A stretch of DNA of 62,829 bases, the filler included. It is 11 parts of 11 records of this genome, joined end to end, with 100 filler letters (N's around TTAATTAATTAA, not from the genome) between each part and the next. Parts side by side here need not be neighbours in the genome. Positions count along the whole stretch, not along the records: positions 8,578 to 12,882 come from SRR7504441_2738; 10 more parts are not named here. One strand, given 5' to 3'. The notes under the pieces are model-generated. The model had not been told where the DNA came from and made no database searches. It was given only the letters and a program-made list of their open reading frames with translations. Position 1 is the first letter of the stretch. Each line of letters starts with the position of its first letter. Below are positions 4,045-62,000 of this stretch, piece after piece. A program made the translations under genes and the position numbers.

Positions 4045-4144
4045 NNNNNNNNNNNNNNNNNNNNNNNNNNNNNNNNNNNNNNNNNNNNTTAATTAATTAA
4101 NNNNNNNNNNNNNNNNNNNNNNNNNNNNNNNNNNNNNNNNNNNN
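4045..4144. other. Artificial contig spacer (44N-TTAATTAATTAA-44N)
   Basis: Identical 100-nt six-frame-stop linker also at 8478-8577, 12883-12982, 17990-18089, 27466-27565, 30605-30704, 40714-40813, 44404-44503, 54382-54481, 58976-59075. Confidence 0.99.
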
Positions 4145-4839: not shown

Positions 4840-6521
4840 TTACACCCTCAGCCGAGGCGTTGCAAGGACGGCCTCGGAGGTGGTGTAAATACTGCTCATG
4901 GCGAATGATGTGGCATTCAGGAGTCTCACGGGTACTGTTCCAGTTGCTGTGACCGCCATGTTGTCGAGTGAGGTACCGGCAGGAATCTCAAACGTCATTG
5001 CAACACGGCCTTCTTGCCAATAGGCTTCTCCAACAGTGCCATCGACAAAGATGCGCATTGAAACATGCTCGTCTTGGGCAAGAAGCGGAAGATCATCCGT
5101 GCCACCACCAGAGGCACCAACGCTCACTCTATACACGTCAGAATCGTTGGAAGGCACATAGTTGATGTACACAGAGCTCTTTCCGAACGAGACAGTAATG
5201 TCAGTTGCAGCTGCAGGCTTCTCAAAGAAGAGTTCAGTGTCCGATGCGCTCGAGATCGGCAGCTTGGCCACTGGGAGGGTGCTGGCTGGAAGAGAGGCGA
5301 GCTGCGTAGTGTGGAGTTGATCCATTTCGTCGACTGGAGTGTACACAATCTGTTTGATTCCAGGGTGGTAAGTCATTTGGCGTGGGATCGTCTGGATCCC
5401 GCTCGGTACGGTCCCCCAAACCCACATGATCCGCCGGTTCTTGATTGGGTCGTGAAAGTCCTTACTGGCGTGTGTCTTGCCTTTGTCCAGCTTGACGCTC
5501 GCTGAGCCAGGGGTTTGGACCCAGGTTCCGACCGTGCCCTTGCCCTGAGGCCCTGGTTGGCCGTCAGTCCACTGACCAACCTGGCACTGGTCGCCCCCGG
5601 GCCCGCCAGACTTATGCACGTGAGTAGGAAGCGCCCCATGACTCTCGACGAATGATTCACTGCCGGGAGTGAGTGCTGGCAAAGGGAAGAATGTGGGGCA
5701 GTCGCCGGCCATCAGCGTTGTGCACCCGATCTTGTACCACTCTACAAAGTCCATAGAGCCGTACATTGGATTGCCGCCTTCCGGGGGGCAGCCCTGGTTC
5801 CCAATGATCCGCCACTCTCCGGCCGCGGTCTTCCAGGCCGTGCTAGGGTCGTCTCCGGTGTTGTTCAGTACTGGGTTGCTCAGCTGCTTGCCCCCGATCG
5901 AGCCGGACTTGCTCCACTTGGTGTAGAGAGGGTCCGATGCATTCTCAGGCACCACCACCACGTACGTGGAGCCGCCGTGCCCGTCGTTGCAGCCCGGTCC
6001 GCCGCCGGGGCCGTCTCCTCCGTTACACATCCCGGGGTACATGATCACAGGTTTACCGTCCACGATGGTGGCCGAGCCGGTGTAGATGGCCACATTGTCA
6101 TAATACTGATCGTTCCAGATGGCCACCGGGAGCCGCGCCCACTTGACGAAGTCCCGAGAAACCCAATGCCCCCAATCCGGGCCGTTACCGGCTCCGTTCA
6201 TGTCGAGTGCAATATGGATCTGGTAGAAGTTATGGTAGACGCCGTGCACCGGGTCGTAAAATGGCCCGTTCGGGTCGTTGATGTCTGCAGCAGCCGGTGA
6301 GAAGGCAAGCAGCCGGAGGCGGCACCGCAGCTCGGGTCGGCCAGGTGAAAAGTATACTTTGGCGGGCTGCCGATGCACTGCTGATTGGTCGGGGTGCAAG
6401 GCCCACCGGTGCAGTTGACGCACCGCCGCCAGCCGCAGCCCTCCAGCCCGCTGGCGGTCGCCGCGCAGAGGAGGAGGCCAACGATCGCGAGGGTCACTGA
6501 AGATGTGGAGTGGCACGCCAT
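4840..6521 (-). CDS. Secreted glycoside hydrolase family 32 (beta-fructofuranosidase-like); intron 6285-6325
   Basis: Signal peptide MACHSTSSVTLAIVGLLLCAA; after splicing FHLADPSCDINDPNGPFY...YHNFYQ...WGHWVSRDFVKW...IYTGSAT...ASKDFHDP...RRIMWVW. Confidence 0.9.
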
Positions 6522-6599
6522 GAGTCCAGGGCTCTTGAGTGTGGCGGGCTCCCGGCCTTGTTGATGTAACGAACTTTCATCTGCCAGTGTGTACCGGGC

Positions 6600-8477: not shown

Positions 8478-8878
8478 NNNNNNNNNNNNNNNNNNNNNNN
8501 NNNNNNNNNNNNNNNNNNNNNTTAATTAATTAANNNNNNNNNNNNNNNNNNNNNNNNNNNNNNNNNNNNNNNNNNNNCTGCAAGCTCCGTTCCGGCTGCG
8601 CTGGACAAGCGGTCTACAAGCGGTCTGGTGCAGTCTTTCGAAATTCGACTAAATTGCGAATGATCAAGTGCTCAATCGCTCAATCTATAGATACTAGAGC
8701 AACTACCTTTATTATATATGTATGTACGTACAGTGCATGTCCGTATAGCTCTAGAGGGCGCTCGAGGGCGTGCACTTGCCAAACAAGAAACCACGACGTC
8801 GACGATACAATCATGCACAAAGTGGAGATTACGTCGACAACGTAAAACTGAGCGCGGACATGGACTATTCTTGGCTAG

Positions 8879-11448
8879 TTAGTCCATGCGCTCGTTCAGG
8901 TCAGCGAGCGTTTCATCCGCACTCTCACCCTCTTGCACAAACCTCCAAGCTTTGATCACCGACTTGCGACACATGAGCAAGTTTACCTTGAGCTGCCGCA
9001 GGCTGTTATCAGCTGGTCCAAGGGTATGTTCCAGCGTTTCTGGATGGTAATGTAGTAGTGTAGCAAGATACCAGTAGTCTTCGCCTGCTTTCCCCAGCCG
9101 GAAAAACAACTGCTTGCCGACGATTTCTTGCCCCCACCCGAGTGACTCGCGGTCAACTGGCGGTGGGTCGATCAGGGTTGACTCAAACTCCTCGAGCGGC
9201 AAAAGCATGCACTCGCTGTTGATGCTAGACCACTCGCAATCCGGGATCGTGTCCCTGGGCCAGCGCAAGAAAAAATCGCTGGGAGCCGTGCCCCGCCGAG
9301 CAACGGGACCAGCCCCAATCACGCCGCAGTGCCCGTACAGTACTGGGGGTTCTAGTACTGTTTCGTCGTCATCGTCAACCGCAACGAGTCGCACGAGGTA
9401 GGCACTGTCCTTGAGTTCAAGCAGGCGCCTCAGGTACCCCTTTGGCAAACCGTCCGGTGAATCGGGCCGATCTGGCTCCGATTGATGGGACAGCACCTCT
9501 GCATCCGCTCCGATGGCGTCTGCAATCCGGCCAGCCTCGCGCAGGCCACTCAGTATAGCTCCGTGCATTGTGGCTGGGTGCTGGCTAGTGGTGTGCTCTC
9601 CCGCAAAGAACAGCCGTGTATCGTCACTGGGCTTGGCCAATTCATCGTGCACATTGCCGGTGCAGCCCACAGCCATGTAAGAGTAGCTCCCTCGGCTCCA
9701 TTTGTGCTGTCGCCAGCGCGTCATGTATGTGTGGCTTGGATCCGGTGCCTGCAGTCCTCAGCTCAGACCAGACAAGCAAAGCCCGTTGACCGTCGGGAAT
9801 GTGGCCCGCAACTTGCTCATCGCGTGGCTGCATAGCTCGGACTCGGTCTGTTGCTCGCCCCACTCGGCGCCCTTGCCTGGGTTAGGGTTAGGGTTAGGGT
9901 TAGCGACACTTGCCTGACATCAGAGCAACCAGCACAAATCCACCTGCCACAGGCGACACATCCCACCACTGCATTGCCACCCCTGGCAACACGTCCGCTG
10001 TCACAATCCCGAAGAAGTCGCTGTCCTCCGACCAGAATCGCCGTTCAAACCTCAGCACCAGCTTGTTCACCAGCCCAAACCCGAGCCGGTCAATCGCATC
10101 CAGTTTGGACTTTGCCAGCCCGGGCGAGAACTGGAGCTTGCCCGTCTTGAGCACCCCTAGAGGCGCTGTGCACAAGACGGCTGCGCCAGAGTATTCCTGG
10201 CCATCAGCAGTCCGGACCGTGGCGCCGTCCGAGCGGTGCGCGATTTCAGTAACGATTGCACCACACACCACAGTGCCCTTGAACAGCCCTCGGAGCGTCT
10301 GTACAAACTGAGCCGTGCCGCCGGTGATCCAGGCATGCTCCCCGGGAAACCCGTGCTGGCTGTCCATATCCCAGTAGCGGGCAGAGCTACACTCGAGCGG
10401 CGCGCCGTTGCCATACTCGATGCTGCAACCGGAGTCAGCACCTAGGTCAGCTGGAAGGCGCGTACTTTGACAAGTGCCATGCAAGCACTCGACGCTCGGG
10501 CTCCGGGGCACGCAGCTTGTCCAGCTCGCCATTCACCGCCTCTGCCAAAGACAGCTGGTCCGAGGCCGACTTCTGCTCACGGGCGAGCCTCTCCATCAGC
10601 CTGTCGAGCAGCCGCTCCGTCTGACTGTCGAGGTCCTGAGGCACTGGCTCACTGTCCTGATACAACGGGCAGCGTGTGTGCCGCAATCGATGGAGCGCCA
10701 GCCGTTGCTGGACCGTCAGCTGGACAAGTGGGTTCTGGTCTACTCCAGTCACCACCGCAGCGCCTGCGTCCACACTGCAGCCATCCCCAAGCGCAGCTGA
10801 GCGAACCCGACCTCCGAGAATCTGATCAGCCTCAAGCAATACTGTGTCCACTCCAAAGCTCTGCAGGTGCACCGCCGCGGCCAGCCCAGCCAACCCTCCG
10901 CCGACCACCACACAGCGCGTCGGCCCGGATCTCACCGCGGAGGTCAGCCCGAAGTTGATTAGGCCAAGCCGGCTGAGCACACCGAGCTGTCCACCGGCTC
11001 GCTCGGAGCAGTCAAGCCGGGCACACCGCGACTGACAGCACTGGCCGGTGTCGCTCCTGGATCCGTCGGGCCACCCGAGCCTCTGTTAGCCGAATCCTGC
11101 CGCCCGGCTGTCAAACCAACCCGGTGGCCTGTACCACCGCGGCGAATCCCACCACATGCGGAGCACCACATTGCGCACGCTGGCATAGACAGCCGCTCCG
11201 GGTCGGACAGTCAGCGGCTGGGTGGCTGGGTCGCGTTGCAGGATCGCCAACTCGGCCGGGCCCGGGGCATGCTGCGGCAGCCCGAGGTTGTAGGCCACTG
11301 TCCGCTCGCGTTGATCTAGCGTCTCCGCATCCTCCTCCGATGAGTGGGCCGAATCCTCTCCGGGCGGCGGCCCGACCGCCTTCCGCTTCCTGCCCGATCG
11401 CCGCTCGGGCACACGACTTGCCAACGCCGTATCAGTGGCTCCTGGCAT
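8879..11448 (-). CDS. KDM1: LSD1/KDM1-like histone demethylase (SWIRM + FAD amine oxidase + C-terminal Tudor-like region); 5 introns
   Basis: SWIRM-like [13 protein letters not shown] and [74 protein letters not shown]; introns 9749-9790, 9877-9913, 10423-10465, 10987-11026, 11097-11137. Confidence 0.9.
9879..9903 (+). repeat. Interstitial telomeric repeat (GGGTTA)4 inside a KDM1 intron
   Basis: GGGTTAGGGTTAGGGTTAGGGTTAG read directly. Confidence 0.95.
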
Positions 11449-11724
11449 TCCCGGGATCTGAGCAAAAAGGAGGCTTGAAAAAAGTGCCGCCTGAACCGCA
11501 TGCATGCGCATGCTGGTGTGTGCGGTGTGTTGGCTGACTGCAGTAGACTGCATGTGTCTCTTGGTAAAAAAAAGAGAAGGTACACCGTAACCGTCGCAGT
11601 ATATAACGGACATATTGTACAGATTGGGCCCGCAAGGCTAGGGTTAACGTTCCTAGCCATACAAATCTCCTGGAGTGATCAATGATTGTAGCAGCAGACA
11701 GCTATGCTATGGGCGCAAAGTCGA

Positions 11725-12882
11725 TTAGGAGTCTGTAGGTGGCGGCTCGACAAGCAGCGCCTCTTCGTTTCGGCGCCGCCTCTCGACCTCAGCCTCGCTA
11801 TAGAATAAAGCCTCACGCCGCCGATACCCCTCCCGAGCTTGCTCGGACTGTTGGAACAAAGTGGCCTCCTGCCATCCCGTGATGCAGCTGGCTCCTACAA
11901 GCCGGGCACCACGCGAGGCTTGGGCTGCCTGTACTCCATGTGCCCCGGAGTCTCTAGTGACGGCCGGCTGCCGCCCGACTCGCGAGCCACCTCCAGTTCC
12001 TGGCACCAGTCAGCCCAGTCTACACCAAACTCACCGCAAGCTTCACAACGCAATTGACCGATCCGAGCAGCTCGACTGTTGCCGCTGCCATCTCAATCGC
12101 GCCGATCTTGGCCGCAGCGCTGTCGATGCAAGCCGGGTCCGAGGGCAGCCCAGCCACCGCCGTCTCTAGAGCCTGCAGCCATGCAATTGGCCGGCCGCTA
12201 GCTGATTGAGCGCCTGGGCAAATTCGAGAGTCGGGAGCCGCACCAACTGCTGCTTCCTGCCCACGTCTCGGGGGCACCGCCCCGCTTTGTGGCACCTCTC
12301 TGTCGGCGCGCTGTGGGCTTTTGCCTCAGCCCTCAACGCAGCTGCGGCCTCAGTTTCGGCCCAACCGGCGCCTCGGACCACAGCGGCCTGAGCCAGCTCA
12401 TCCCAGGCCGGCGGCGGGCTACCATGCTGTCTGGTACCAGGCATGGCCGCATGCAAGTGATCGCAGCGCGAACTGCCGCCGCGACCAGCTCTGCGAGCCG
12501 GATCAGCTGTGCTGGCTGTGATCTCACCGAGCTCCGGCTGGTCTGGGCCCTCGAGAATCAGCGAGGCCACTCCTGCCGGTGGCTGAGCCAGACTGTCGCG
12601 GGGCAGGGCTGCCGTCCTGGTTGGGTAACCCGGTGAAGCTGGCCATGCTCTGATGCTCGAGCCTTGCGCTCGCCGCGCTGCTTCACTGGCTCAGGGCCCG
12701 CGCCGGCTGCCACCCGCCTGCCCAGCTGACCCGGCTCGATTGGTGGCTGGTCGGGCCCCAGTGAGCACACCGCCGCCTCGGCCGCCCGCGCGAGCAGCGC
12801 AGCCATAGCGGCGTTGACTCCAGCTACCGCCAGCACCTGCCATGCTGCTGATGCTCGCATGCGTCAGACCCACCCCGCGGCT
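11725..12882 (-). CDS. Hypothetical alanine-rich helical protein, multi-intron, 5' truncated
   Basis: Successive minus-strand frames can be joined by ~40-nt introns, ending ...EVERRRRNEEALLVEPPPTDS*; no family recognised. Confidence 0.5.
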
Positions 12883-13131
12883 NNNNNNNNNNNNNNNNNN
12901 NNNNNNNNNNNNNNNNNNNNNNNNNNTTAATTAATTAANNNNNNNNNNNNNNNNNNNNNNNNNNNNNNNNNNNNNNNNNNNNACAGAGACCGTTATGGCA
13001 CCTGCAAAGCGTCATAAAACCTGCCTTCCGTTTTTCTTTTTTCTCTTTTCTTTACGGGCTCAATGCAGGAGGCAGTGACGTAGAGGCGCTCTCCAGGCTG
13101 CGCCCCAGGCTGCCACCCCACAGCTGCCGGG

Positions 13132-16100
13132 ATGCTCGAGGGGCTGTTCGCGGAGACGCTGTCCGGGCTGCTCGGCGACTGGATCGAGGACATAGACGGC
13201 AACCAGCTCCGGATCGCCTTCCTGCAGGGCGCTCTGGACCTGCGCGGCGTCAACGTCAGGCGCGACGCTATCTCACAGTTCGGGTTCCCGCTCCGGGTGA
13301 AGCGGGGCCGGATCGGTTCGCTGCACCTGTCGGTGCCCTGGGCCAATCTCAAGAGCGAGGCCACCAAGCTGGTGATCAAAGACGTGTACATCCTGCTCGA
13401 GTCGTTGCCTTGGCAGCCCGACGGCTACCAGAAGAGGAGAGAGCGGGCCAAGATGCGGGCGGTTGACCGGGGGCTCCGGCCGATCCAGGCTAAGCTGGCC
13501 CGGGGCTCGAGTGACACTGGCTGGGCGGGCATGCTGCTCCAGACCGTACTGGACAATCTGCAGGTCAAAGTACACAACGTGCACCTCAGGTTCGAGGACT
13601 GCACCCTGCTCCAGCCGCCGCACGTGGCCCCGGGCACCATGATCGCCGCGGGGCTCTTCCTGCACTCTTGCCAGGCCTACACGACCGACGCACAAGGGCG
13701 AGCAGGAACCTCGCAGAGCAGCGCCGTGGTGCACAAGACTGTGGCAGTGCAGGGCCTGGCAGTCTACTGTGACATCGACCAGGCTGGGGACGGGTTCGCG
13801 GCCCCGGTGGTGCTGGACAGCGCTAGTTCGTTCAGCAACCAGATGCTCTCGCTGATGCGGCTGCTCCAGGTGCGAGCTCCTCCTGGCGCGGGCCAGCCTC
13901 GGGCGGCAGGCCGGCCAGCTCAACCCGCCAAAGCACCACTACCTGCTCCAGCCCATGTCGGCTGTGACTGCCTTCACCCATACCCGTTATCTGCTGCCCG
14001 AGATGCCAGCCGACACGCCCGAGTACAAGCTCACGCTCGAGGTGCCTCTGGCTGGCCCAACCACCAGCCGCTCGCGCAGGTCTGCCGGGCGCTGCAGCTG
14101 TCTCAGCAGGCCTCCTTCAACCTGCATCTCTCAGAGACCCAGCTCTGGGCGCTGGCCTCCTTCACAGAGCACTGTGTCAGGTACGGACGTGCCGAGCGCT
14201 TCCGCTGCCTCCGGTGTGTCATGCCTGTGGACTTCTAGTGAGCTTGCCACAGACCAATGCTCGTGATGCCGCGACCAACCGCCTCGCGCGCTGCCTGCCT
14301 GCTCTGGTGGCAGTATGTGCTCGAGTATTTAAAGCAGGAAGCCAGGTGCAGTCCGGTCGGTGCTGCCTGACTAGCCTGGCTCCTCAGGAGAGCTCGCTGG
14401 AGAGTATCAGCAGCTCAATTGGCCCAGCGTCGGCTAGACCGGTGCAGATACTCTCAATTGTACGAAAAGACCAAACAGATGCCTTGGGCCGAGAAGCCCA
14501 CCCCTGCAGAGGAGCAAGAATGGAGCCAGCTCCGTGCCCGGCTCTCGGAAGACGACATTGTTTTCTTCGAGGCACAGGCCGCAGCAAGCCTCGTGAGCCG
14601 GGGACAGGCGCTAGCTATCCGAGTGGCGCAGTGCCGGCAGCTGCAGTACGACAGCATCCGGCAGTCACAGTCGGTCTGGGCCAGGATATTCTCGTCAGAT
14701 GTGCTGCTAGTCGGTGCGCTCTGCCCCAAGACCCTCCTAAATCGCAGCCAGGTGAGCTGTCCGAGGACGAGCTCTCAGCCGCCAGAACGCTCTTCTGCGA
14801 GGACGTCACAATGGCGCTCACTCGACAGGTGCAACTCGAATGCAGCTTGAGTGCGCTCTCACTCAGCTGCACGGTCTCTGACCACTGGCACCGGCCAATC
14901 GTCTCGTTGACCAGCCACAGGCTGCATCTCGAGTGCCGGCAGCTGTCCAGTCGGTTTGAGCTGAGGTACTTTTGCGGCGCGGTGGAGGCTATCGACCACT
15001 TTACTGTGGACTCCAGCTGTCCACACATGGTCAAGTCGACAGAGGCCAGCCCCGAGGAGACTGGTAAGTTCCTTGAGTCAGTGGAAAAGCGCCTGGCGCA
15101 GTTGGAGCAATTCAGCAGGCAATTTAGCAGTGAAGATAAACGGAGTGCGGAGAAGCTGCGAATCGCTCTGGTGCGCTCCGCTTCTGTTGGTGCTTTTTTA
15201 TTTGCGGCTGTGCTTGCAGGATCGGGCTGCAAGCATGAAGCAGCACGGCTGGTGTGTCGAATATCAGAGCAGCGCCGGGGAGCATCAGAGGGCGGAGGTC
15301 TTATGGTATTCAACTGACACAGTTCAGTTTATCATCAGTCCGCCCTGCATTAAGCGAATCAGCACTGTGTGGGCTGCTCTGTCCGGCTTGGAGCTGTACA
15401 CGCTCCGTCAGAAGGCACACGCCAGGCCCCAGCACACCAAGCAGCCGCTGCAGACGCTGGTCACGATTTGCATCCGTGTACCTGTTGTTAATCTGCCGTT
15501 GACGGTGACCGACCCGCATCACGCGGTGCTACTGGCAGACGCCCAGACTTTAATCTGCACCACGCACCAGAGCACGTCGGGAGGATTAGAGCAACTTTAT
15601 TTGGTATGCGTGCAAGGAGTTGGGTTTCACGTCGCGCCCTCGCTGGACCTGGCGGCCAAGGCGCCGCTTTGTGCTGAGCCATTCGACTGCGTCATGTCTG
15701 TGGAAGGTAGCAACGCTTCGTTGCTTGAAGTCACAATCCAGAGCGAACTGCGACTGATCCTGAGCCAAGAGCACTATCAGGCCTTGGCTGGAATTCTCCT
15801 CTCGCTACACAGAGTCTTTGCCGATGGCTCCCCAAGAGAGGTAGCGGGGTCCGCTTCTCCAGGTTCCAGTCCAGGCAGGACAAGCCCAAGCTTGGGACGG
15901 CTCCGCCCCGCATCGTGCCGACGCAATCCTCGGCTACTCGGAAACCCATTCTTTGTTGTTAAACTTTCAACATGCGGGTTTTCTCTGACGCTGTCTGAAG
16001 AAACCTTGTCAGTAGACCTGCAAGCCAGCATCGCAAGCTTGTCTTTAGAGCTACAAATCTTCCCGGACGCCAGCACAATGTCGCTTAGGGCGGGGAAACT

Positions 16101-17989: not shown

Positions 17990-18090
17990 NNNNNNNNNNN
18001 NNNNNNNNNNNNNNNNNNNNNNNNNNNNNNNNNTTAATTAATTAANNNNNNNNNNNNNNNNNNNNNNNNNNNNNNNNNNNNNNNNNNNNA

Positions 18091-25596: not shown

Positions 25597-27090
25597 TCAA
25601 TCGAGCCTGTGCTGCTGGCTGATGCGAGCCAGCTCGGCCGCAATCTCCGCGAATCCAGGCCGCATAGACACAACCGGCTGGTCGCACCGGTCAGCCAGCT
25701 CGACCAGCGCTTGTCTGGGCTGCTGCTGTTGAACCAGGGCGGCCATCTCGCTCGCCAGAACCCCAAACGCACGCACCTCGACCCGCTCCACCAGCGAGCC
25801 GTCGATCGGCCCCTGAGCACCGTAGCAGAAGGCCGCCCCAAAGTCGCCCAGCTTGACCATCTTGCCGTCCAGGCTTGCCTTGATGTTGTGCCCGTACACG
25901 TCGCCGTGCGCAAGATTGAGCGAGTGCAGCCTTCCGAGAGCAGCGCACACTCCTGAGAGCACCCGCAGTGCGGCGGCCGGCTCGATCGGCCGATCAAACC
26001 CTTTGACCAACCATCGGTCGGTGGTGACCTCCACGATGGTGGGCGGGAGCGCCAGGTCGAGCATGTGCCCTGGGAGCTGCTCCATCAACACCTTGATCTG
26101 GCCATCCGGGTGCCGCGCAACTCCAACCGCCCTAATGATAAACGGGCTCGCACCGCCCACTGCCGCGTACAGCGCCGCCTCGTCCTCCGCCTTGCCGTCG
26201 GACGAGACTGCCTTGAATGTCTTAATCGCCACGGGCTTGCCATTGAACTGGCCGGGCAGCACCTTGCCTGACGCTCCCTGCCCGAGCGCGGCCGCACCCA
26301 GGTCAACGGAGTAATCGTCCGGGCCGAGCTGATCCGGGACGACCGGCGGCGGGGCCGGGGGCATGCACGGGTTGCCCGCGGCGGCGAACCAGGCCAGTTT
26401 GGGCAGCTTGAGCAGCTCAGCAGGGAGCTGTTTGAGCTGGTTGTTAGCGAGCCGGATCAGCTCGAGGGAGACCATCTTGCGGACGCCGTCCGCCGGGAGC
26501 CCCGTGAGCAGGTTGTTGGCGAGCATCAGCTTGCGCACCTTGGTGAGCCGGTCGAAGACGGCCGGCTGGATCCACTCCAGTTTGTTGTCTGTAAGGATCA
26601 GATGCACTACCCCCGCCGGGAGCGAATGCGGCCCGATCTGGGAGATTCCGTTGGAACGCAGCCCCAGCCGGGTGAGTTTGGTCATCCGGCCGAGCACCTC
26701 GGGCACTGCGGTCATCTGGCGGCAGCCGAGAACAAACAGGATCTCCAGTTGGGTGCACAGGGCCAGCTCGGCCGGAAGGTCCACCAACCGCGGATTGCCC
26801 CCGAGGTCCAACTTCTTCAGCCCAGTGCACAGCCCGATCTCGGCTGGCAGCGCCGGCAGGTCGCACCCGCGCAGGTCTAGCTCGGCCAGCCCGGCCAGCC
26901 GCGGGCGCCACCGGGGGCTGCTGAGCACCTGGCAGCGCTCGTGCTCGGCAGGGGGCTGCTCGGCGGCCTGCTTTGATCTCGACCAGAACCAGAGCACCGC
27001 CGAGACGGCCATCGCCCCGAGCACCGTGTTGCCCAGCCGCTCCCACCGTGCAGGCATCGCAGGGAGGAGGCCTGCGCGATTGCGAGGCAT
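25597..27090 (-). CDS. Leucine-rich-repeat + atypical protein kinase, intronless
   Basis: N-terminal TM helix; LRRs (LEILF, LILTDNKL, KLMLANNLL, LAWFAAAGNP); LGQGASG, VAIK, HGDVYGHN, LGDFGAA. Confidence 0.88.
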   Translation of the reverse strand: MPRNRAGLLPAMPARWERLGNTVLGAMAVSAVLWFWSRSKQAAEQPPAEHERCQVLSSPRWRPRLAGLAELDLRGCDLPALPAEIGLCTGLKKLDLGGNPRLVDLPAELALCTQLEILFVLGCRQMTAVPEVLGRMTKLTRLGLRSNGISQIGPHSLPAGVVHLILTDNKLEWIQPAVFDRLTKVRKLMLANNLLTGLPADGVRKMVSLELIRLANNQLKQLPAELLKLPKLAWFAAAGNPCMPPAPPPVVPDQLGPDDYSVDLGAAALGQGASGKVLPGQFNGKPVAIKTFKAVSSDGKAEDEAALYAAVGGASPFIIRAVGVARHPDGQIKVLMEQLPGHMLDLALPPTIVEVTTDRWLVKGFDRPIEPAAALRVLSGVCAALGRLHSLNLAHGDVYGHNIKASLDGKMVKLGDFGAAFCYGAQGPIDGSLVERVEVRAFGVLASEMAALVQQQQPRQALVELADRCDQPVVSMRPGFAEIAAELARISQQHRLD

Positions 27091-27270
27091 TGCTGGCGTT
27101 TTTGTTGGTGCCAGTTTTTCGGTTTGGTCTTCGATCTCATCACAATGCCCTGCCCCGCAGCCAGCCGGCCGCCAATGCTGTCATCCAGCTAGCCGCCAAC
27201 GCGCCCGCAGCGTTCGGCAGTTGGCTCAGGCGGTCGCTCGTCCGTGCTGGTCTCTGGGAGGGAAGCCAGC

Positions 27271-27465: not shown

Positions 27466-27565
27466 NNNNNNNNNNNNNNNNNNNNNNNNNNNNNNNNNNN
27501 NNNNNNNNNTTAATTAATTAANNNNNNNNNNNNNNNNNNNNNNNNNNNNNNNNNNNNNNNNNNNN

Positions 27566-28966
27566 TCAGGCAGCGACCTGTACTCCAGGCTGGTTGGGTC
27601 AGTTGACTGGGAGGATGTCTTCGATAATGAAGTCGGCTCGATCGGTGTCATCCTGCTCAAGCTGCTATCGATCATCAACGTGCTGGCGGCTGCTGTGCGA
27701 GTGGTGATGCGGATCCACTTGCAGCGAGTCACTTCTGAATGGGCTTACCGGTTGCCCACCAAAGCAACCGAAGTTATTAGCGTTCTCCGAGGGATGGCCG
27801 ACTCATCCCGTCTCGTGTACGAGATGTGGTACTGTCTGTGGTCGGCTGCTGCAGTGATCTTCAATCTGCTGATTCCTTTCCTTCTAGTTGAAGTTGCGAT
27901 CGGCAGCTTTTCGATGCAGCTTGTTGGGCAGGCGGTGTGGAAGGACAAGGTGACTTACTCCATAGGCTTGCTATACTATACTATTATACTATACTATGAG
28001 GCCATAGCTCGGGCTGACAGTAGGACCGGCAGATTACTCTAGGTTGGGCCATCCTCACGCTGATGGTTGTATGCTACATGTTTGCCGCAGTTGCAATGGC
28101 GCTTTTCCCGGCAAGTTTTGCGCAGGCCTCCGGCGCTGATCCCTGGCTGCTGCAGGGCGATTACACTTTCCCAGATGTCTCGTGGGAATACCCTGCCGAG
28201 TGTAACTCGCTTGTGGCGTGTGCTCGCGACCACCTTCAATACGGGCTGCATTCGCCGCCAGTTTGGTTCAACCCTACCAATCTTGGCCAGTGGGTATTCG
28301 ACTTATGCTACTTCTTCATCATCACGCTTTTCCTAACGGAGATGATCACTGCGTTCCTCTTCGACACATTCTTCAAGGTGCGCATTATTCCCAGCCATTT
28401 AGGGCTGTGCGAGACCGGCTTAGGTGAAAGACAAATATTCTGGGATCGAAGCACTTGGTATCAACAATCGGTGCTTCATCTGCTGTGAGGACCCTGAGAC
28501 GCTGAGGCGGCGCTATCCCGATCTGGAAGCCGAGCCCAGTGACGAGGTGGTGCTCAAGACCCATTGCAACGGCACACACGATCTATTCGGCTGGGTGGCT
28601 TTCTATACAATGATTCAGCTGGCTTTCAATCGGCACAGGCTTCACGCATGGGGCCCAGGTAATGAGAGCGTTGCCCGATTTGTTGATGAAGACGACGAGA
28701 GGACCGCCTGCTCTGCCCTGCCCGGATTGCTTGGTGACGAGCGGTGGCTGGCTCTGATCATCGAGGCTAGACGCTCCGAAGGAGTCCCGATTTACAAGAA
28801 GGATTCTGCGAGCGATAGCTGGCACATAGCCCCGTTCAACCCTTCGACGTCTGAAGATGTGCGAATCCTGCACGACCGCCTGAGCGACAAGTTGCACTAT
28901 ATAGCCAATACAATGCCTGAGCATCGGACGACTATGGGTAACAAAGATTGGAAAAACTATGGATAA
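27566..28966 (+). CDS. C-terminal channel domain of an IP3-receptor/ryanodine-receptor-like protein (5' truncated); introns 27950-28032, 28378-28423
   Basis: CNSLVACARDHLQYGL pore helix; WVFDLCYFFII...FLFDTF; NNRCFICC and HCNGTHDLFGW C2H2 Zn motif typical of IP3R/RyR. Confidence 0.8.
27971..27997 (+). repeat. (CTATA)n microsatellite inside an 83-nt intron
   Basis: CTATACTATACTATTATACTATACTAT. Confidence 0.85.
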
Positions 28967-30604: not shown

Positions 30605-31124
30605 NNNNNNNNNNNNNNNNNNNNNNNNNNNNNNNNNNNNNNNNNNNNTTAATTAATTAANNNNNNNNNNNNNNNNNNNNNNNNNNNNNNNNNNNNNNNN
30701 NNNNAATCGATGGCGAGAGTGCACGAAATATCCATTGATAGAGATTGTGACCGACGTTGGAGCGGTGCAATCGCATGACAGAAGGATGCTACCACCCGCG
30801 CTCGCCGCGCATGGGCTTGGAGTGCAATTTTGATCCGCCGATCTCCGGATTGATGATGCGCGCATGGACGCGCGGTGGCCCATCAAAAATCATTTGATTT
30901 GTAATTAGTATTACGTAGTAATGTACGTACCTGTACATAATGTTATATACTGTAACATGCACAATCATGACATTGTATGATCAATACAATAATTATTGTA
31001 CATGTACGTATATAGATTTTATATAATTAGCTAATATTATACTTGAGATAGTAATTAGCTACATGTACTGTAGCTAATATCTGAGGTTAATCCGAGCTAA
31101 TGCTATCGGCTAAAAGAGGTAATG

Positions 31125-35277: not shown

Positions 35278-36168
35278 TTATCCGTTGAGCGCCTCAGCAC
35301 CGGAGATGATCTCGATCAGCTCGGTGGTAATGATAGATTGGCGGGCCTTGTTATACTGGATCTGCAGCTTCTCGACCAGCGACTCGCAGTTGCGGGTGGC
35401 GTTGTCCATGGCCGCCATCTTGGAGGCAATCTCGGAGCACTGGTTCTCCACCATCCCGGTGAAGATACCGGCGGCCAGCGTGAACTCGCCAAAGTTGTTG
35501 ACGAGGTCGGCGCGAGCAGACTCAATCTCGTACTCGTTGAGCGGATCCACGTCCATCTCTTGCATCACCCGGGCGGAGGGAACAGTCAGCAAGGTGGGCT
35601 CCTGTTTCACCGCTGAGACGAACTTGTTGTAGAAGATCGCGTACTTGTCGGCGTCGGTGGCTAGAGCTTGTTCGGCAGCCACGCTCGCCTGGCCGAAGTT
35701 GGGCAGGACCTGAGCGAACATCCCGGCGATGGTGGTTTTGAGCTCGTCGGGAGCGAACCGCCTTAGCTGGGACCGGCCCTTGTCGCCAACGCACATAATC
35801 TCCACCTCGGCTCCGGCCTCTTTCTCGGCCGGCACGTGCACCCTGGAGAGTTCCTTTGTGATCTGAATGTTCACCCCGCCACACAGCCCACGGTCGGTGG
35901 TGATCGGGACAAAGACGGTCTTCTTGGAGGGCGGGGCCTCCACTAGCGAAGTCATCTCCTCGACCATCGCCATCAACGGCCGAGCGCCCTTCAGCCGCTC
36001 CTCGGCCCCGCGGAGCTTGGAGGCGGCAACCATCTGCATCGCCTTTGTGATCTTGGCGATATTTGCGGTGGACTTGATCCGCCCCTCTACCTCCTTGAGC
36101 GTCGCCATCGTCCTGGCCTGCACCGGGAAACCCAGGCCTCGCGAGGCAGCACGCCGGGCGAAAGCCAT
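35278..36168 (-). CDS. ATP3: Mitochondrial F1 ATP synthase gamma subunit, intronless
   Basis: Transit peptide MAFARRAASRG...; ATLKEVEGRIKSTANIAKITKAMQMVAASK, TDRGLCGG, SEIASKMAAMDNATRN, YNKARQSIITTELIEIISGA. Confidence 0.97.
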   Translation of the reverse strand: MAFARRAASRGLGFPVQARTMATLKEVEGRIKSTANIAKITKAMQMVAASKLRGAEERLKGARPLMAMVEEMTSLVEAPPSKKTVFVPITTDRGLCGGVNIQITKELSRVHVPAEKEAGAEVEIMCVGDKGRSQLRRFAPDELKTTIAGMFAQVLPNFGQASVAAEQALATDADKYAIFYNKFVSAVKQEPTLLTVPSARVMQEMDVDPLNEYEIESARADLVNNFGEFTLAAGIFTGMVENQCSEIASKMAAMDNATRNCESLVEKLQIQYNKARQSIITTELIEIISGAEALNG

Positions 36169-36379
36169 CTTGTCTCGGGTTGTCAACTGCTGTGAGTGGG
36201 ACTCGCTCTTCAATAAACCTCCCAAAAGTGCCTCTCTACAGCCAACCAGGTTGATTCTTTCCGTTGAGAGGAGCCTATTTTCAGGCATTGTACGCGCCAT
36301 CTGCAGTGTCGGCAGCGTCGCACCAGCAAAGCAGCCCGGCGTCCCCGCCCGTCCCCCGCTGCGCAGCCAGGTCGGGGCC

Positions 36380-40713: not shown

Positions 40714-40881
40714 NNNNNNNNNNNNNNNNNNNNNNNNNNNNNNNNNNNNNNNNNNNNTTAATTAATTAANNNNNNNNNNNNNNNNNNNNNNNNNNNNNNN
40801 NNNNNNNNNNNNNTCGATAATTATCACAAGAACAATGTTTTTTGAAAACGAAAAACCGTTAGTTTAATTTTAAAGACTAAA

Positions 40882-41220
40882 CTAGGAGCCCGGACTAAAA
40901 TTACGGCTTACTTCCACTGGGAATGCAATCGCGGTTGCCATGAATGCGATCTTGGCATCTCGATTCAGTTTGTACCTATACTCGTCACAAAGCTGAATCC
41001 CTCGCGTGATGCCAGAGAACTCGCTATCTGCAGTCTGCCTAAGCACCTGAGCAGCAGCATCAGTCAACCTCGCACCGGTTCGTCCGGGTGATCGTCGTCC
41101 AGCACCCGCGCCGCGTGGGCGACGATGCGCTCCAGGCTCGTGCCATCACAGATCATGCTGCCCCACGGAGACTGGCACAGCGCAAGCCGCTCCATTTCTG
41201 TGCCTTCAGAGTCACGCATG
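40882..41220 (-). CDS. Possible small hypothetical protein
   Basis: Two ORFs joinable only by an unusually short intron; no recognised motif. Confidence 0.3.
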
Positions 41221-44403: not shown

Positions 44404-44503
44404 NNNNNNNNNNNNNNNNNNNNNNNNNNNNNNNNNNNNNNNNNNNNTTAATTAATTAANNNNNNNNNNNNNNNNNNNNNNNNNNNNNNNNNNNNNNNNN
44501 NNN

Positions 44504-54369: not shown

Positions 54370-54703
54370 GCGGGCGGGGCGNNNNNNNNNNNNNNNNNNN
54401 NNNNNNNNNNNNNNNNNNNNNNNNNTTAATTAATTAANNNNNNNNNNNNNNNNNNNNNNNNNNNNNNNNNNNNNNNNNNNNGAACGGCCTAATTTAGGGT
54501 TAAATGTCCGTACAGTGTAAGCAAGCCCTAGTCATGGACCCAAGTACAGTGGCTATGATCTACCAACATAATTATTCCTATGTTCAGCACAAAAGCAACC
54601 TAGTGCTGTGTGCTCCAAATTGTTTTAAAATATACCCAAAATGGTGACTTGAGAATTACTTACGATACCAGTGATCATGACACTAACCAAGTACTTGTAA
54701 GTG

Positions 54704-57851: not shown

Positions 57852-58534
57852 TCAGCCTTCACTGCCAGTCTGATCCATCGCCTGCAACCCTCGATTAATC
57901 TGCAAGTCGACCGGATTATCACAATCACCTCACGAATGAGCGCAGCAACGCGGCTCGAACCACGCTCCTCCGCCATCTGGAGCGGAGTCTTGCGCTCCTG
58001 TATCCGCTTAATGGTCGGCCGAGCCTGGCGCTCGCCTTGTCCTTGGCCCTTACGTCGGCCTTTGCCGCCAGCAGCAGCTGCACGACGTCCTCATGCCCGC
58101 AGTGCACCGCTTCATGCAGCGTAGTGTACCCAAACTGCCCGCAACAGGCTCTCACCTGGCTCGCCCGATCAGCGCACCGTGTCTGTCTTGAGCTCGGTAT
58201 CGGCCTTGGCCTCCAGCAGCAGCTGCACTCCCTCGGCGTCGCCCGCCTCAGCCGCCCGATGCAGCGCGGTCCAGCCACTCTGCCGCCTGCTCACCGGCCG
58301 GCAGGCTCAGCTGGGCACCCGCTCCTTCCCGTTGGGCCAGCCCTTGGCCTCCAGCAGCAACCGGACAGCCTCGGTGTGGCCACCGCGCGCGGCCAGGTGC
58401 AGCGCCGTCTGGCCGAATTGGTTCTCGGCCCGCAGTGCCGCGTGTCGGTCCCGGGCCAGCTGGCCGCTCAGAAGGGGCACGTCTCCCGACCCGGCAGCCC
58501 CGAGCACTTTCTCGTCACTCACCCCGCACCCCAT
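57852..58534 (-). CDS. Ankyrin-repeat protein; introns 58280-58318, 58135-58177, 57998-58035 and a probable fourth
   Basis: GQTALHLAARGGHTEAVRLLL, GWTALHRAAEAG..VQLLL, GYTTLHEAVHCGHEDVVQLLL, KTPLQMA. Confidence 0.9.
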
Positions 58535-59075
58535 CGCGCTGTCTTTCATAACGGAATTTACCCAACCTCTTACCAACCTCTATACTGACCGTGACCCTGC
58601 ACACAACCGACGTGGTCCCGAGACACCCACACGGATGTGGACCGGATGCGGAGACCGCCATAAGATACTTTCAAAGTATTCAATTAATGTCAATCAGTTT
58701 ATTGAACCGTGCTTCAAGTATAGCTTCAAGGTGCCTTCCATGCGTCAAACACGTCAGTGCCCGCCCGCTTGGCTTGAGCACGGACGCAATTCTCCATCCG
58801 GCGCCAGCCCTCCTGGCGCGGATCCCACTGCTCCTCGGCGTAGTGATGCAACGGATCATTCGCATCAGCCAGCCCGGCCTCCGCAGCCCATTGCTGCGCG
58901 TTCCCTCTGCACGCCCCCAGCCGAGTCGCGAGCCCATACATCCAAATCTGCCCCTCCATCACCCTCCCCCCCCCTNNNNNNNNNNNNNNNNNNNNNNNNN
59001 NNNNNNNNNNNNNNNNNNNTTAATTAATTAANNNNNNNNNNNNNNNNNNNNNNNNNNNNNNNNNNNNNNNNNNNN

Positions 59076-62000
59076 ACGGTGCTGCGCTATGTAGCAACAG
59101 GAGGCCGTGGGCCAGGTTCGTTTCCAGCTGCGTTGGCACGTTGCACTTGCAGGACTATCGTAAGGCTCGAGATACTCACGTGGAGGCCGGGACAGTTCAG
59201 AGTCATCCAGAGCACTCCACGGAAACCGTGATTGTCTGTAAACCAACACAGCGAGTTGTTTGGTCAAATCATTAGCTTCTGGTAAGTGGGCCCCTGGCCG
59301 ATGTTTGCCATTAAGGATACTCAAAACTGTATGAGCATTGGTTCCAGAATACCCAAATGAGCTCACTCCTGCTGTTCTACCCATAGATGTGAAAGTTGCC
59401 AACTGCGAAGCCAGCGGTACGGTGACGGTGTCCTCAAGTGTGGGATTTTGCCGAGAGAGATGCAAATCGGGAGTGACACAGAGGATCTTGAGTCCACATA
59501 TAGCTTTAAAGAGTCCCATCAACCCGGCAGCTGGCTCCGCATGACCCACGACTGTTTTCACGGCCCCTAAGTACACAATATCTTGTCCCACAGCCCGCAG
59601 AGCATGCGTTTCGATCGGATCACCCAGCTGCGTGCCTGTACCATGCGCTTCACTTGCATGAGCTGCAAGACTCAAAAGCTCGATGGCCGAAGCAATGACA
59701 CGGGTTTGGGCCGGCCCGCTCGGTGCCATGAGCGATGCGCTTTTCCCGTCCTGGTTGGTTGCAGATCCGACCAACTGTACCATGTGAGGACCGGTGGTGT
59801 CAAGAATGCCCGCAGCACACCCATCTGCGCGCCCAAAGCCATTTGCTAACGCGTCAAATGTCTTACAATACCCATTGGGCGCAAGCACTCCCAGAGCGCT
59901 CAGGCTAGCGGAGCTTGAACAATATACCATATTAGCAGCAGCGTACAATGCTTTTGAGCTGTGAGCGAGCTGCAGTGTCTGATAAGCGCAATTCAGAGCA
60001 ACCAATCCAGAAGAGCACGCTGTTGCAACGGACACAGATGGACCAGTTAGTCCAAAACTAAAGGAGACACGGCCCGCACAAATAGCACAACTGTTGAATG
60101 CGGCGTACGAGGAGGCTACTGCGCGCTTAGTTTGGATCGAAACCGGGGACTCGTTTAACCCCATGAAGACAGCAGTGTCTGACCCATTCAAACTCTGCCG
60201 GGTGTAGCCTGACTTGAGAAACGTCTGAGCGGAGCATTCAAGAAGCAGTCTCTGTATGGGATCTGTCGCACGTGCCTCAGCTGGAACCATGTGAAAGGCA
60301 GCATTGTCAAACTGGTCGGCTGTTGCAAGCCAATAAGCTGGTGGCACCTGTACACTTTCCAGAGCACCTCGCTCGGCAGGAAGACAGCTTGATCTTGTTC
60401 CTAGGTTGCAGAGCCCCGACCAGACTGAATCAATAGATGCACTTCCTGCCATCACTACCTCCAGTGACTTGAGAGCACAAACTGGATGCTGAGTCTTGGG
60501 CCTCGTCAGCCGATCAGTATTCAACATAACAACGCCATCAGGTGCGGCATCATCTGCCCTTACCGATACTCCGTCGTTGGCCGCCTGAAGAAAACCAATA
60601 ATCTCGCGAGCAGTCGGAAAGCTGAAAACAAGCATGCTAGGAAGTCGTAGTCCAGCCGCTCCAGTTGTTTCCTTCAATCGCTGAGTAAGTTCTGCTGCCT
60701 GCTTAGATCTTATACCAGCTTGCATCAAGGGTTCATCAAGATCTAGCTTCTTCCCAAGCATGGCCTCCAGCTGACGTACAACAGCCCTCTCAAGGGTATC
60801 AATTCTGGCCTCACTTTCACCTGAGGGATTATTGTAGCATATCAGACAGTTTTCAGACTTTTGCAGGAAATCTGTAGGTCTGTGCCATGTTTTGCACTGC
60901 ATCTGTCCACTCTGCACGTATTTCGTCTCCCGCTGGTGCTCAACAATCAGGTGCACATTTTCCCCGCTCACAGAGGTGCCGCTGACGCTGCTCCAGCTCT
61001 TTGCTTCGCTCAACGGCAGACAAAGAGCCTCAACAGTGGGCAGGCACAGCTCAGCGGTGCGCTTTATCAAAGGTATTGGCATGGTGATATTCACGTGTCC
61101 AGGTACAGAATGGTGCTGCATGACCAGGCAAGTAGTGACAAGCCCTAGGAACCCTGACGCATACTCACTGTGTCCAAAGCAGGACTTATGGTTAGCCAGG
61201 ACTAATTGAATGCCTTGCTTGTCTTGTGTAAAGACCTCACAAATGGCCTGTAGCTCTGGCACATCGCAAGGGGGACTGCCCATGGCGTGCAGGTGGGTGG
61301 TGCTTACATAATTAGCCTGGACATTGGCGCGAGACAGTGCATCTGCTGCAGCCCCCGCGATTGTGTCTGGATCAGCAAACCCGATTGGGAATTTAGTGGG
61401 CGTTCTGACACTGGCTGAACCCACCAGGGCGATGAAGTCAGCCACTCCTGACAAGGCTTCACTCTCAAGCAAAACTGCACCTGCTGCTTCCCCCGCTACC
61501 ATGCCATCAGCAAACGCCTGCCACACCCAACCATCAGTCAGCTCTATCAGCTACTCACATCGAGTGGTTGCATCAATCCGGATTTCGATGAAAACGGCGA
61601 ATGAAACTGTGGCTTAAGCAGCAGCTGCACTCCACCTACGATTGCTGCCTGGCATAGGCCGGTCTTGATTCGTTCGTGCCCTTTGTGTATCGCCAGGTAT
61701 CCACTGGAGCAGGCTGCATCTACGTTGCTCAGTTCAGCGTCCATGCCCAGCTTCATGGCAAGCAAGCGCGGGACATAAAATGAGCCCAGGGGTGGAATGG
61801 CAAATAATCTCACATCAGCAGCTGTGAACAGGCAGAGGCGTCTTTCTCTGAGAGTGCCTTGAGTCCAGCCGGCACTTAGAACCGCCTGCTGGGTCACAGC
61901 GATGAGAACCTGCATGTGTGGATCCAATGCAGCTCCGTTCTGTGTGGTTAATAATTCTGTTCTACAATGAGGTGCACTGGGGGAGATAAAGGATTCGGCA

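Follow-up and report, generated by a model that had tools for sequence, protein, structure and literature searches.

A predicted intron of telomere-type repeats in an LSD1/LSD2-like amine-oxidase gene, a candidate product of staggered-break repair

The DNA analysed here, a 62.8-kb stretch (the window) along which all positions are counted, carries on its minus strand a flavin amine-oxidase gene related to LSD1 and LSD2, and the coding sequence of this gene is interrupted by a 37-nucleotide (nt) segment that runs from GC to AG, consists largely of telomere-type CCCTAA repeats and lies between two copies of the same 8 nt. Our model of the gene has six exons (11511-11138, 11096-11027, 10986-10466, 10422-9914, 9876-9791 and 9748-8879), and with the 37-nt segment removed it is open over 2430 nt and has a single terminal stop. 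The flavin amine-oxidase family PF01593 was matched on three minus-strand exons, the best solved relatives are human KDM1B (1.4e-20) and KDM1A (4.1e-22), and among the homologues listed, four of six combine SWIRM (PF04433) and amine-oxidase domains (32-38% identity). An earlier reading of this DNA, made from its letters and called here the sequence-only reading, had described the host gene as KDM1-like; this stands for the amine-oxidase domain, which is closest to LSD1/LSD2, but not for SWIRM, which had no Pfam match in the 183-residue upstream frame even at E values up to 10, so that the safe name is LSD1/LSD2-like amine oxidase rather than proven KDM1. The gene runs about 200 residues beyond the oxidase domain (8882-9500, minus strand) with no family match there, and the match to solved LSD1 stops at residue 95 of the 289-residue last exon. 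The features at the locus, in the order in which the gene is read, are as follows.

8879..11511, minus strand: LSD1/LSD2-like flavin amine-oxidase gene, six-exon model, on the 4.3-kb contig 8578-12882 (Pfam, solved relatives, open frame)
10423..10465, minus strand: previous intron, 43 nt, GT-AG (GTACGC...TTGCAG), with two CTGAC motifs (gene model)
9914..10422, minus strand: upstream exon, amine-oxidase domain, ending ...FVLVALMS + G (Pfam, homologues)
9953..9959, minus strand: exonic GTGTCGC, possible template of the filler, a weak candidate with a chance of about 3% (recurrence of letters)
9909..9916, minus strand: upstream copy of CAGGCAAG, made of the exon-end CAG and the intron-start GCAAG, with the 5' splice site CAG/GCAAGT (exact repeat)
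9877..9913, minus strand: predicted intron, 37 nt, GC-AG, phase 1 (G/GC glycine codon), carrying the telomere-type repeat (sequence, homologue colinearity, model scores, in-frame TAA when kept)
9904..9908, minus strand: non-telomeric filler TGTCG, 5 nt, separating the upstream repeat copy from the telomere-type tract (sequence)
9879..9903, minus strand: perfect (CCCTAA)4.2 on the sense strand, (GGGTTA)n on the plus strand (Tandem Repeats Finder, pattern counts)
9872..9879, minus strand: downstream copy of CAGGCAAG, made of the intron-end CAG and the exon-start GCAAG, with the 3' splice site (exact repeat)
9791..9876, minus strand: downstream exon, 86 nt, starting ..GC AAG GGC.. (frame, homologues)
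9749..9790, minus strand: next intron, 42 nt, GT-AG, phase 0 (gene model)

On the gene strand, where the segment runs from 9913 to 9877, its context is ...ctgatgtcag/GCAAGTGTCGCTAACCCTAACCCTAACCCTAACCCAG/gcaagggcgcc..., with the codon frame CTG ATG TCA G/.../GC AAG GGC GCC GAG. When the segment, the repeat run and both 8-mers were re-read, every coordinate and letter given for them by the sequence-only reading proved correct. Tandem Repeats Finder reported a period-6 array at 9879-9903 (25 nt, 4.2 copies, 100% matches). With up to one mismatch allowed, the 12-mer CCCTAACCCTAA has three overlapping matches, all at this locus, against 0.09 expected, and none of 100 shuffles reached three; when 14 telomere-type units were searched on both strands, none was found doubled elsewhere in the window. 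The run is thus short, near-perfect and internal, as expected of a short interstitial telomeric sequence. The flanking 8-mer reads CTTGCCTG on the plus strand (CAGGCAAG on the gene strand), and its copies at 9872-9879 and 9909-9916 are identical at 8 of 8 positions and lie 37 nt apart, so that the plus-strand order is CTTGCCTG, four GGTTAG units, CGACA and a second CTTGCCTG. Within the repeat there are four CTAAC motifs, whose branch-type A lies 23, 17, 11 and 5 nt from the 3' end. Together with one neighbouring letter on each side, the 5-nt filler reads GTGTCGC (9903-9909), and the same letters recur 50 nt upstream in the exon (9953-9959); this recurrence, for which the chance expectation is about 3%, hints that the filler may have been templated by flanking sequence during end joining.

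If the segment is kept, the upstream frame runs into a TAA stop within it; because of this in-frame stop, and because its length is not a multiple of three, the segment must be removed. Homologues place the gap at the same letters: in tblastn comparisons with fungal SWIRM/amine-oxidase proteins, the matches stop at 9912 or 9909 in five of five, and four of the five resume at 9877, at the same or the adjacent query residue (for P0003, 766-956 and then 956-1082), the fifth (P0006) resuming at 9751. Another homologue, P0134 (52% identical), reads straight across the intron site. Three in-frame models were scored against seven homologues: removal of the 37-nt GC-AG segment, removal of a 31-nt GT-AG segment, and a version in which the repeat is coding. 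The 37-nt model scored highest with all seven. The 31-nt GT-AG intron (9907..9877), which stays in frame and would add Lys-Cys, is a second option, and it scored 3-12 units lower in seven of seven comparisons. Measured between two anchors on LSD2 (residue 203, aligned to chain residue 665, and exon-3 residue 2, aligned to chain residue 701), the 37-nt model gives 34 residues against 36 in LSD2, and this spacing taken alone would equal that of the 31-nt model; the alignments, however, locate these two residues beyond the ...LRATF/LSRM helix and close to the next intron, and in them the 37-nt model remains the better one.

A donor that starts with GC has to match the rest of the consensus well. 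The segment reads CAG/GCAAGT...CCCAG/G, its removal restores the frame, and its branch motifs lie at workable distances, as in U2-type GC-AG introns. That removing the 37 nt restores the amine-oxidase frame, as the sequence-only reading had it, is borne out by the colinearity with homologues and by the model scores, and the analysis supports the view that the segment behaves as a predicted intron of the LSD1/LSD2-like gene. Its anatomy, the need to remove it and the colinearity of the flanks with homologues are direct observations.

The organism from which this DNA comes is probably an uncultured telonemid-like marine protist, since the closest named relative found, with 68% identity to an ATP synthase gamma protein of the window, is a Telonema subtile transcriptome protein (the next named organisms are at 44%), this one protein being the basis of the assignment. 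The gene in question, a mitochondrial-type ATP synthase gamma gene at 35281-36183 (minus strand), has 99%-identical proteins in the protein database and is a single exon with no introns, so that it offered no independently supported intron for comparison. Short introns across the window are ab initio predictions. The first-pass parser, which used codon statistics, GT/GC...AG borders and a flat penalty, with neither a splice model nor a length prior, predicted 88 introns; 22 of these measure 35-49 nt, no other 5-nt bin holds more than five, and the mode lies at 35-44 nt. A second pass, self-trained, predicts too many introns (131) and lets genes on the two strands overlap; it takes the wrong path at this locus and served as a background set only.

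Twenty-four short introns were compared in detail, namely the 22 from the first pass and two homology-supported introns of the amine-oxidase gene. Their donor consensus is (A/C)AG/GTGCGC (T at +2 in 92%, G at +3 in 67%, C at +4 in 71%; 22 GT and 2 GC donors), and their acceptor consensus is GCAG/G. CT[AG]A motifs occur in 13 of the 24, against 21.5% of random 42-mers, and 10 of these 13 lie 9-34 nt from the 3' end; all are CTGA[C/G/T] except one CTAAA, and CTAAC occurs in none of the 24. Set beside these introns, the telomere-type one is usual in its CAG/G borders and in its 37 nt, which fall within the local class of about 35-46 nt, in agreement with the proposal of the sequence-only reading that the length matches the short-intron optimum of this genome. 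Its donor GCAAGT is out of keeping with the local introns, as are its CTAAC motifs, and because GCAAGT departs from the local GTGCGC the intron looks foreign and young. The further suggestion that the C-strand repeat supplies the branch point therefore holds in part: four CTAAC motifs do lie on the sense strand, but the local motif is CTGA[C/G/T] rather than CTAAC. Examples of the predicted short introns that share the AG/GTGCGC donor and GCAG/G acceptor consensus lie at 13870-13909, 15171-15219 and 28378-28423 on the plus strand and at 41035-41075 and 58135-58177 on the minus strand.

How exceptional the flanking duplication is can be expressed as a boundary repeat, that is, how many positions an intron can be shifted by while its spliced product stays the same, a number that here is 8 (3 + 5). 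A boundary repeat of at least 8 was found in none of 27 first-pass and none of 106 second-pass predicted introns, where the maxima were 5 and 7, respectively. Across the 26,897 G[TC]...AG pairs of 30-50 nt in the window, the probability of 8 or more is 0.00056, and it is 0.026 among the 427 pairs with AG/G on both sides, a set that includes tandem repeats and this locus itself. The 8-bp flanking duplication of the sequence-only reading is thus exact, and exceptional among the predicted introns of the window. The splice consensus does not explain four of the repeated letters (CAAG), and because these coincide with the window's only telomere-type run in the same 37 nt, coincidence is unlikely.

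We consider it fairly probable that these 37 nt form a spliceosomal GC-AG intron of recent date, made in one step through repair of a staggered break with telomere-type repeats and a 5-nt filler. The event would have begun with a staggered double-strand break at AG/GC within the exon sequence ...ATGTCAGGCAAGGGC..., and retention of both 8-nt overhangs (CAGGCAAG) would account for the duplicated flanks. The 3' end ...CTTGCCTG of the plus strand, which does not carry the gene, would then have been extended by exactly four GGTTAG units (24 nt), either by telomerase or by capture of telomeric DNA, and five letters (CGACA on that strand) would bridge to the other end. The duplicated 8-mer with its AG/GC would have turned its upstream copy into a near-ideal GC-type donor (CAG/GCAAGT) and its downstream copy into an acceptor (CAG/G), while the CCCTAA repeats on the sense strand would have supplied four CUAAC branch-type motifs in a C-rich tract, so that splicing would give back precisely the frame that the exon had before. 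From the anatomy we infer the break, the sequence of steps, the enzyme involved, the young age of the intron and its splicing. The repeat units and both 8-mers are without mismatch, which fits a young insertion, because young telomeric insertions show fewer mismatches in the data excerpted from a study of primates and rodents (PMC2246262).

This mechanism would join two known kinds of event, intron gain by break repair and short interstitial telomeric insertion. New introns in Daphnia carry direct repeats of 4-12 bp common to the exon end and the opposite intron end, which are taken there as the mark of a staggered break, and according to that study the origin of the DNA in a new intron is known in a few cases only (PMC4202315). 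The present locus resembles these break-repair introns in having an unrelated insert in an exon, a short direct repeat (8 bp here) and an exactly restored frame; unlike them, it has a recognisable source, whereas in Daphnia the source is seldom known and intron-free alleles prove the gains (PMC4202315), no such allele being available here. Telomeric insertions at repaired breaks in primates and rodents are described, in the sections of that study available to us, as coming with no change, a deletion, an addition of random sequence or a duplication of the target, with break ends often in register with the added repeat (PMC2246262). The likeness extends to a few perfect TTAGGG units at an internal site and a G-strand run that starts at the presumed 3' end, and the duplication and random-addition classes of those sections (PMC2246262) are combined at this one locus. 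The same sections do not describe the mammalian insertions as creating introns, and the in-register microhomology in them is usually longer than the single G found here (PMC2246262).

A third comparison is with tandem duplication of an AGGT-containing exon segment, where, as here, two copies of AG/G(T or C) give donor and acceptor; in the portion of that account consulted, however, the intron body copies the exon, whereas the duplication at the present locus spans 8 nt only and the body consists of telomere-type repeat (PMC3443670). The anatomy matches both the mammalian telomeric insertions and the Daphnia break-repair introns, and to this extent the proposal of the sequence-only reading that a break was healed with telomeric sequence finds partial support; what the anatomy does not distinguish is telomerase from captured telomeric DNA.

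For telomerase itself we are correspondingly more reserved. That the enzyme made a ready-to-splice intron in a single repair event, by extending one 3' end at an AG/GC break, is a tentative proposal, possible rather than probable. Telomerase would not be separable here from capture of a telomeric fragment, the 1-nt register being uninformative on this point. The role of telomerase in primates and rodents, as presented in the available parts of the study, rests on many loci and on pieces of telomerase RNA (PMC2246262), and here there is one locus. Rfam gave no match in the window, which thus offers no small nuclear RNA or telomerase RNA for comparison.

Several observations weigh against a recent gain by break repair. 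The evidence comes from one locus only, in a fragmentary environmental assembly. Telomere-type, as used here, describes likeness to the TTAGGG unit rather than to the organism's own chromosome ends; TTAGGG is held to be the commonest and probably ancestral telomere unit in the excerpted part of a survey (PMC6759080), but the closest named relative is only 68% identical in one protein, and we found no literature on the telomeres of telonemids, Telonema subtile included. Of the end presumed to have served as primer, a single letter, the terminal G of CTTGCCTG, is in register with the repeat, and about one case in four would show such a match by chance. Four of the eight repeated letters (CAG/G) are expected from the splice consensus alone, and a hexamer microsatellite that only resembles a telomere could have grown from a CTAAC branch motif. 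The donor GCAAGT is a poor match to local donors, which makes splicing efficiency uncertain, and no RNA contig crosses 9877..9913 among the aligned contigs of four sequencing runs, for which 9869-9911 was skipped as repeat.

Relatives add little on recency. Protein searches with the upstream exon gave no close orthologue (best 52% identity), and scans of metagenomes gave four loci at 28-38% identity and nothing closer. The sequence-only reading had proposed looking for an intron-less allele or a close orthologue with a single copy of the repeat, and neither appeared among the protein matches (at most 52%) and metagenome loci (at most 38%). Two distant homologous genes, P0134 and the contiguous DNA of L001/L003, do have no intron at the site. 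They are also without the neighbouring 42-nt intron, L001 and L003 being uninterrupted at both positions, and because that intron is absent as well, these distant intron-less homologues say nothing on how recent the 37-nt intron is. With the relatives found, a gain would not be separable from old age.

The main rival is an older intron whose 3' part expanded by CTAACC slippage seeded on its own branch motif, with the telomere likeness and the 8-nt repeat both coincidental; we judge it unlikely. A branch-type CTAAC would make a CTAACN unit telomere-like one time in four, and CAG/G at both borders is simply the local consensus. Without its three extra units, however, such an intron would have been 19 nt long, much shorter than the local class of about 35-46 nt, or else additional deletions are needed, and an 8-nt boundary repeat arises by chance with a probability of 0.00056 to 0.026 and is absent from all other predicted introns. 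The seed is also at odds with the local branch-like motif CTGA[C/G/T], CTAAC being found in none of the 24 introns, and Tandem Repeats Finder listed no further hexamer microsatellite of this kind for the window.

Quite improbable, in our estimate, is that the insertion is real but unspliced, marking a disrupted allele or young pseudogene, or that it is an error of assembly. Either would fit an atypical donor, the lack of an RNA contig across the site and a fragmentary assembly of 11 contigs joined by spacers. Matching sequence occurs in small shares (0.05-0.12) in marine and estuary metagenomes and in two RNA runs, and the contigs of the four runs that were aligned cover the gene in ten short pieces that differ by 1-5 letters each; one RNA contig covers 9969-10208 only. 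None of the contigs from the four runs spans the intron, and joints were not reported among them; in run X2 a DNA contig fits up to 9868 and leaves 60 further letters unplaced, and one of run X1 fits from 9912 and leaves 9 unplaced, lengths that are compatible with insert-bearing DNA without bridging it. These metagenome contigs hold 13 variants, of which 7 are synonymous (one of them downstream of the 37-nt intron), 4 non-synonymous and 2 in predicted introns, a pattern that we take as a weak sign of purifying selection, weak because the contigs are of low depth. Against a disrupted allele stand this majority of synonymous changes (7 of 11 coding variants), a frame that is open over 2430 nt in six exons for the rest of the gene, and the exact removability of the segment at GC...AG with suitably spaced branch motifs; against an artefact, an assembler does not surround 29 nt with an 8-nt target duplication, and the two flanks are parts of one gene, with order and orientation kept.

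Some DNA transposon superfamilies typically leave 8-bp target duplications, and introners are transposon-made introns, present in many copies and bounded by ends of their own, that arise in one step and take one of their two splice sites from the target duplication. The duplication size and the introner-style origin of a splice site would therefore suit a mobile-element remnant or product, whether introner-like or left by an 8-bp-stagger transposase cut that was later filled, and one-step creation with a splice site supplied by target duplication is common to introners and this locus. We nevertheless rate this slightly below even the unspliced or artefactual alternatives: the insert and its surroundings gave no pair of inverted repeats, the window holds just this one copy, and the 29-nt insert, unlike an introner, consists of 24 nt of pure telomere-type hexamers plus 5 nt. 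Least credible of all, and very improbable indeed, is a coding repeat, with a 46-nt GT-AG intron (9959..9914) spliced out in its place and the CCCTAA run read as Asn-Pro repeats, a path that the self-trained ab initio parser took with its splice and length model and that finds the minus-strand frame 9758-9919 open, but that deletes a conserved strand aligned by five of five homologues and kept in P0134 and L001, and that scored worst with seven of seven homologues, by 35-48 units. Automatic annotation could repeat this Asn-Pro error at 9758-9919 (minus strand) by way of the 46-nt pseudo-intron.

The other contigs of the window carry genes unrelated to the amine oxidase. They encode a polyketide-synthase-type ketosynthase with a carrier domain (59031-61550), glycoside hydrolases of family 30 (119-1636) and family 32 (4843-6576) and a leucine-rich-repeat protein kinase (25600-27180), all on the minus strand. 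Eleven contigs are joined in the window by ten identical 100-nt spacers (N44-TTAATTAATTAA-N44), and gene neighbourhood across these spacers is not real. The spacers lie at the following positions.

4045-4144, 8478-8577, 12883-12982, 17990-18089 and 27466-27565: spacers
30605-30704, 40714-40813, 44404-44503, 54382-54481 and 58976-59075: spacers

No intron made of telomere repeats was found in the full-text literature searched, most subscription journals being outside its reach, and the stem 'telomer' occurs zero times in the Daphnia paper (PMC4202315) and in a 2012 review of intron gain (PMC3443670). The origin of the DNA in new introns is a standing question, and at this locus the source is readable from the sequence. 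A single event would account for three splicing signals, the donor and acceptor through the 8-nt duplication and the branch motif through the C-strand repeat. If confirmed, it would link telomeric insertions at repaired breaks with intron gain by break repair, two subjects that stand apart in the literature searched, and it predicts, for any genome with short introns, a sense-strand bias of CCCTAA-type introns with flanking duplications. If the proposal for telomerase is true, the enzyme would be one more of the few sources so far identified for new spliceosomal introns.

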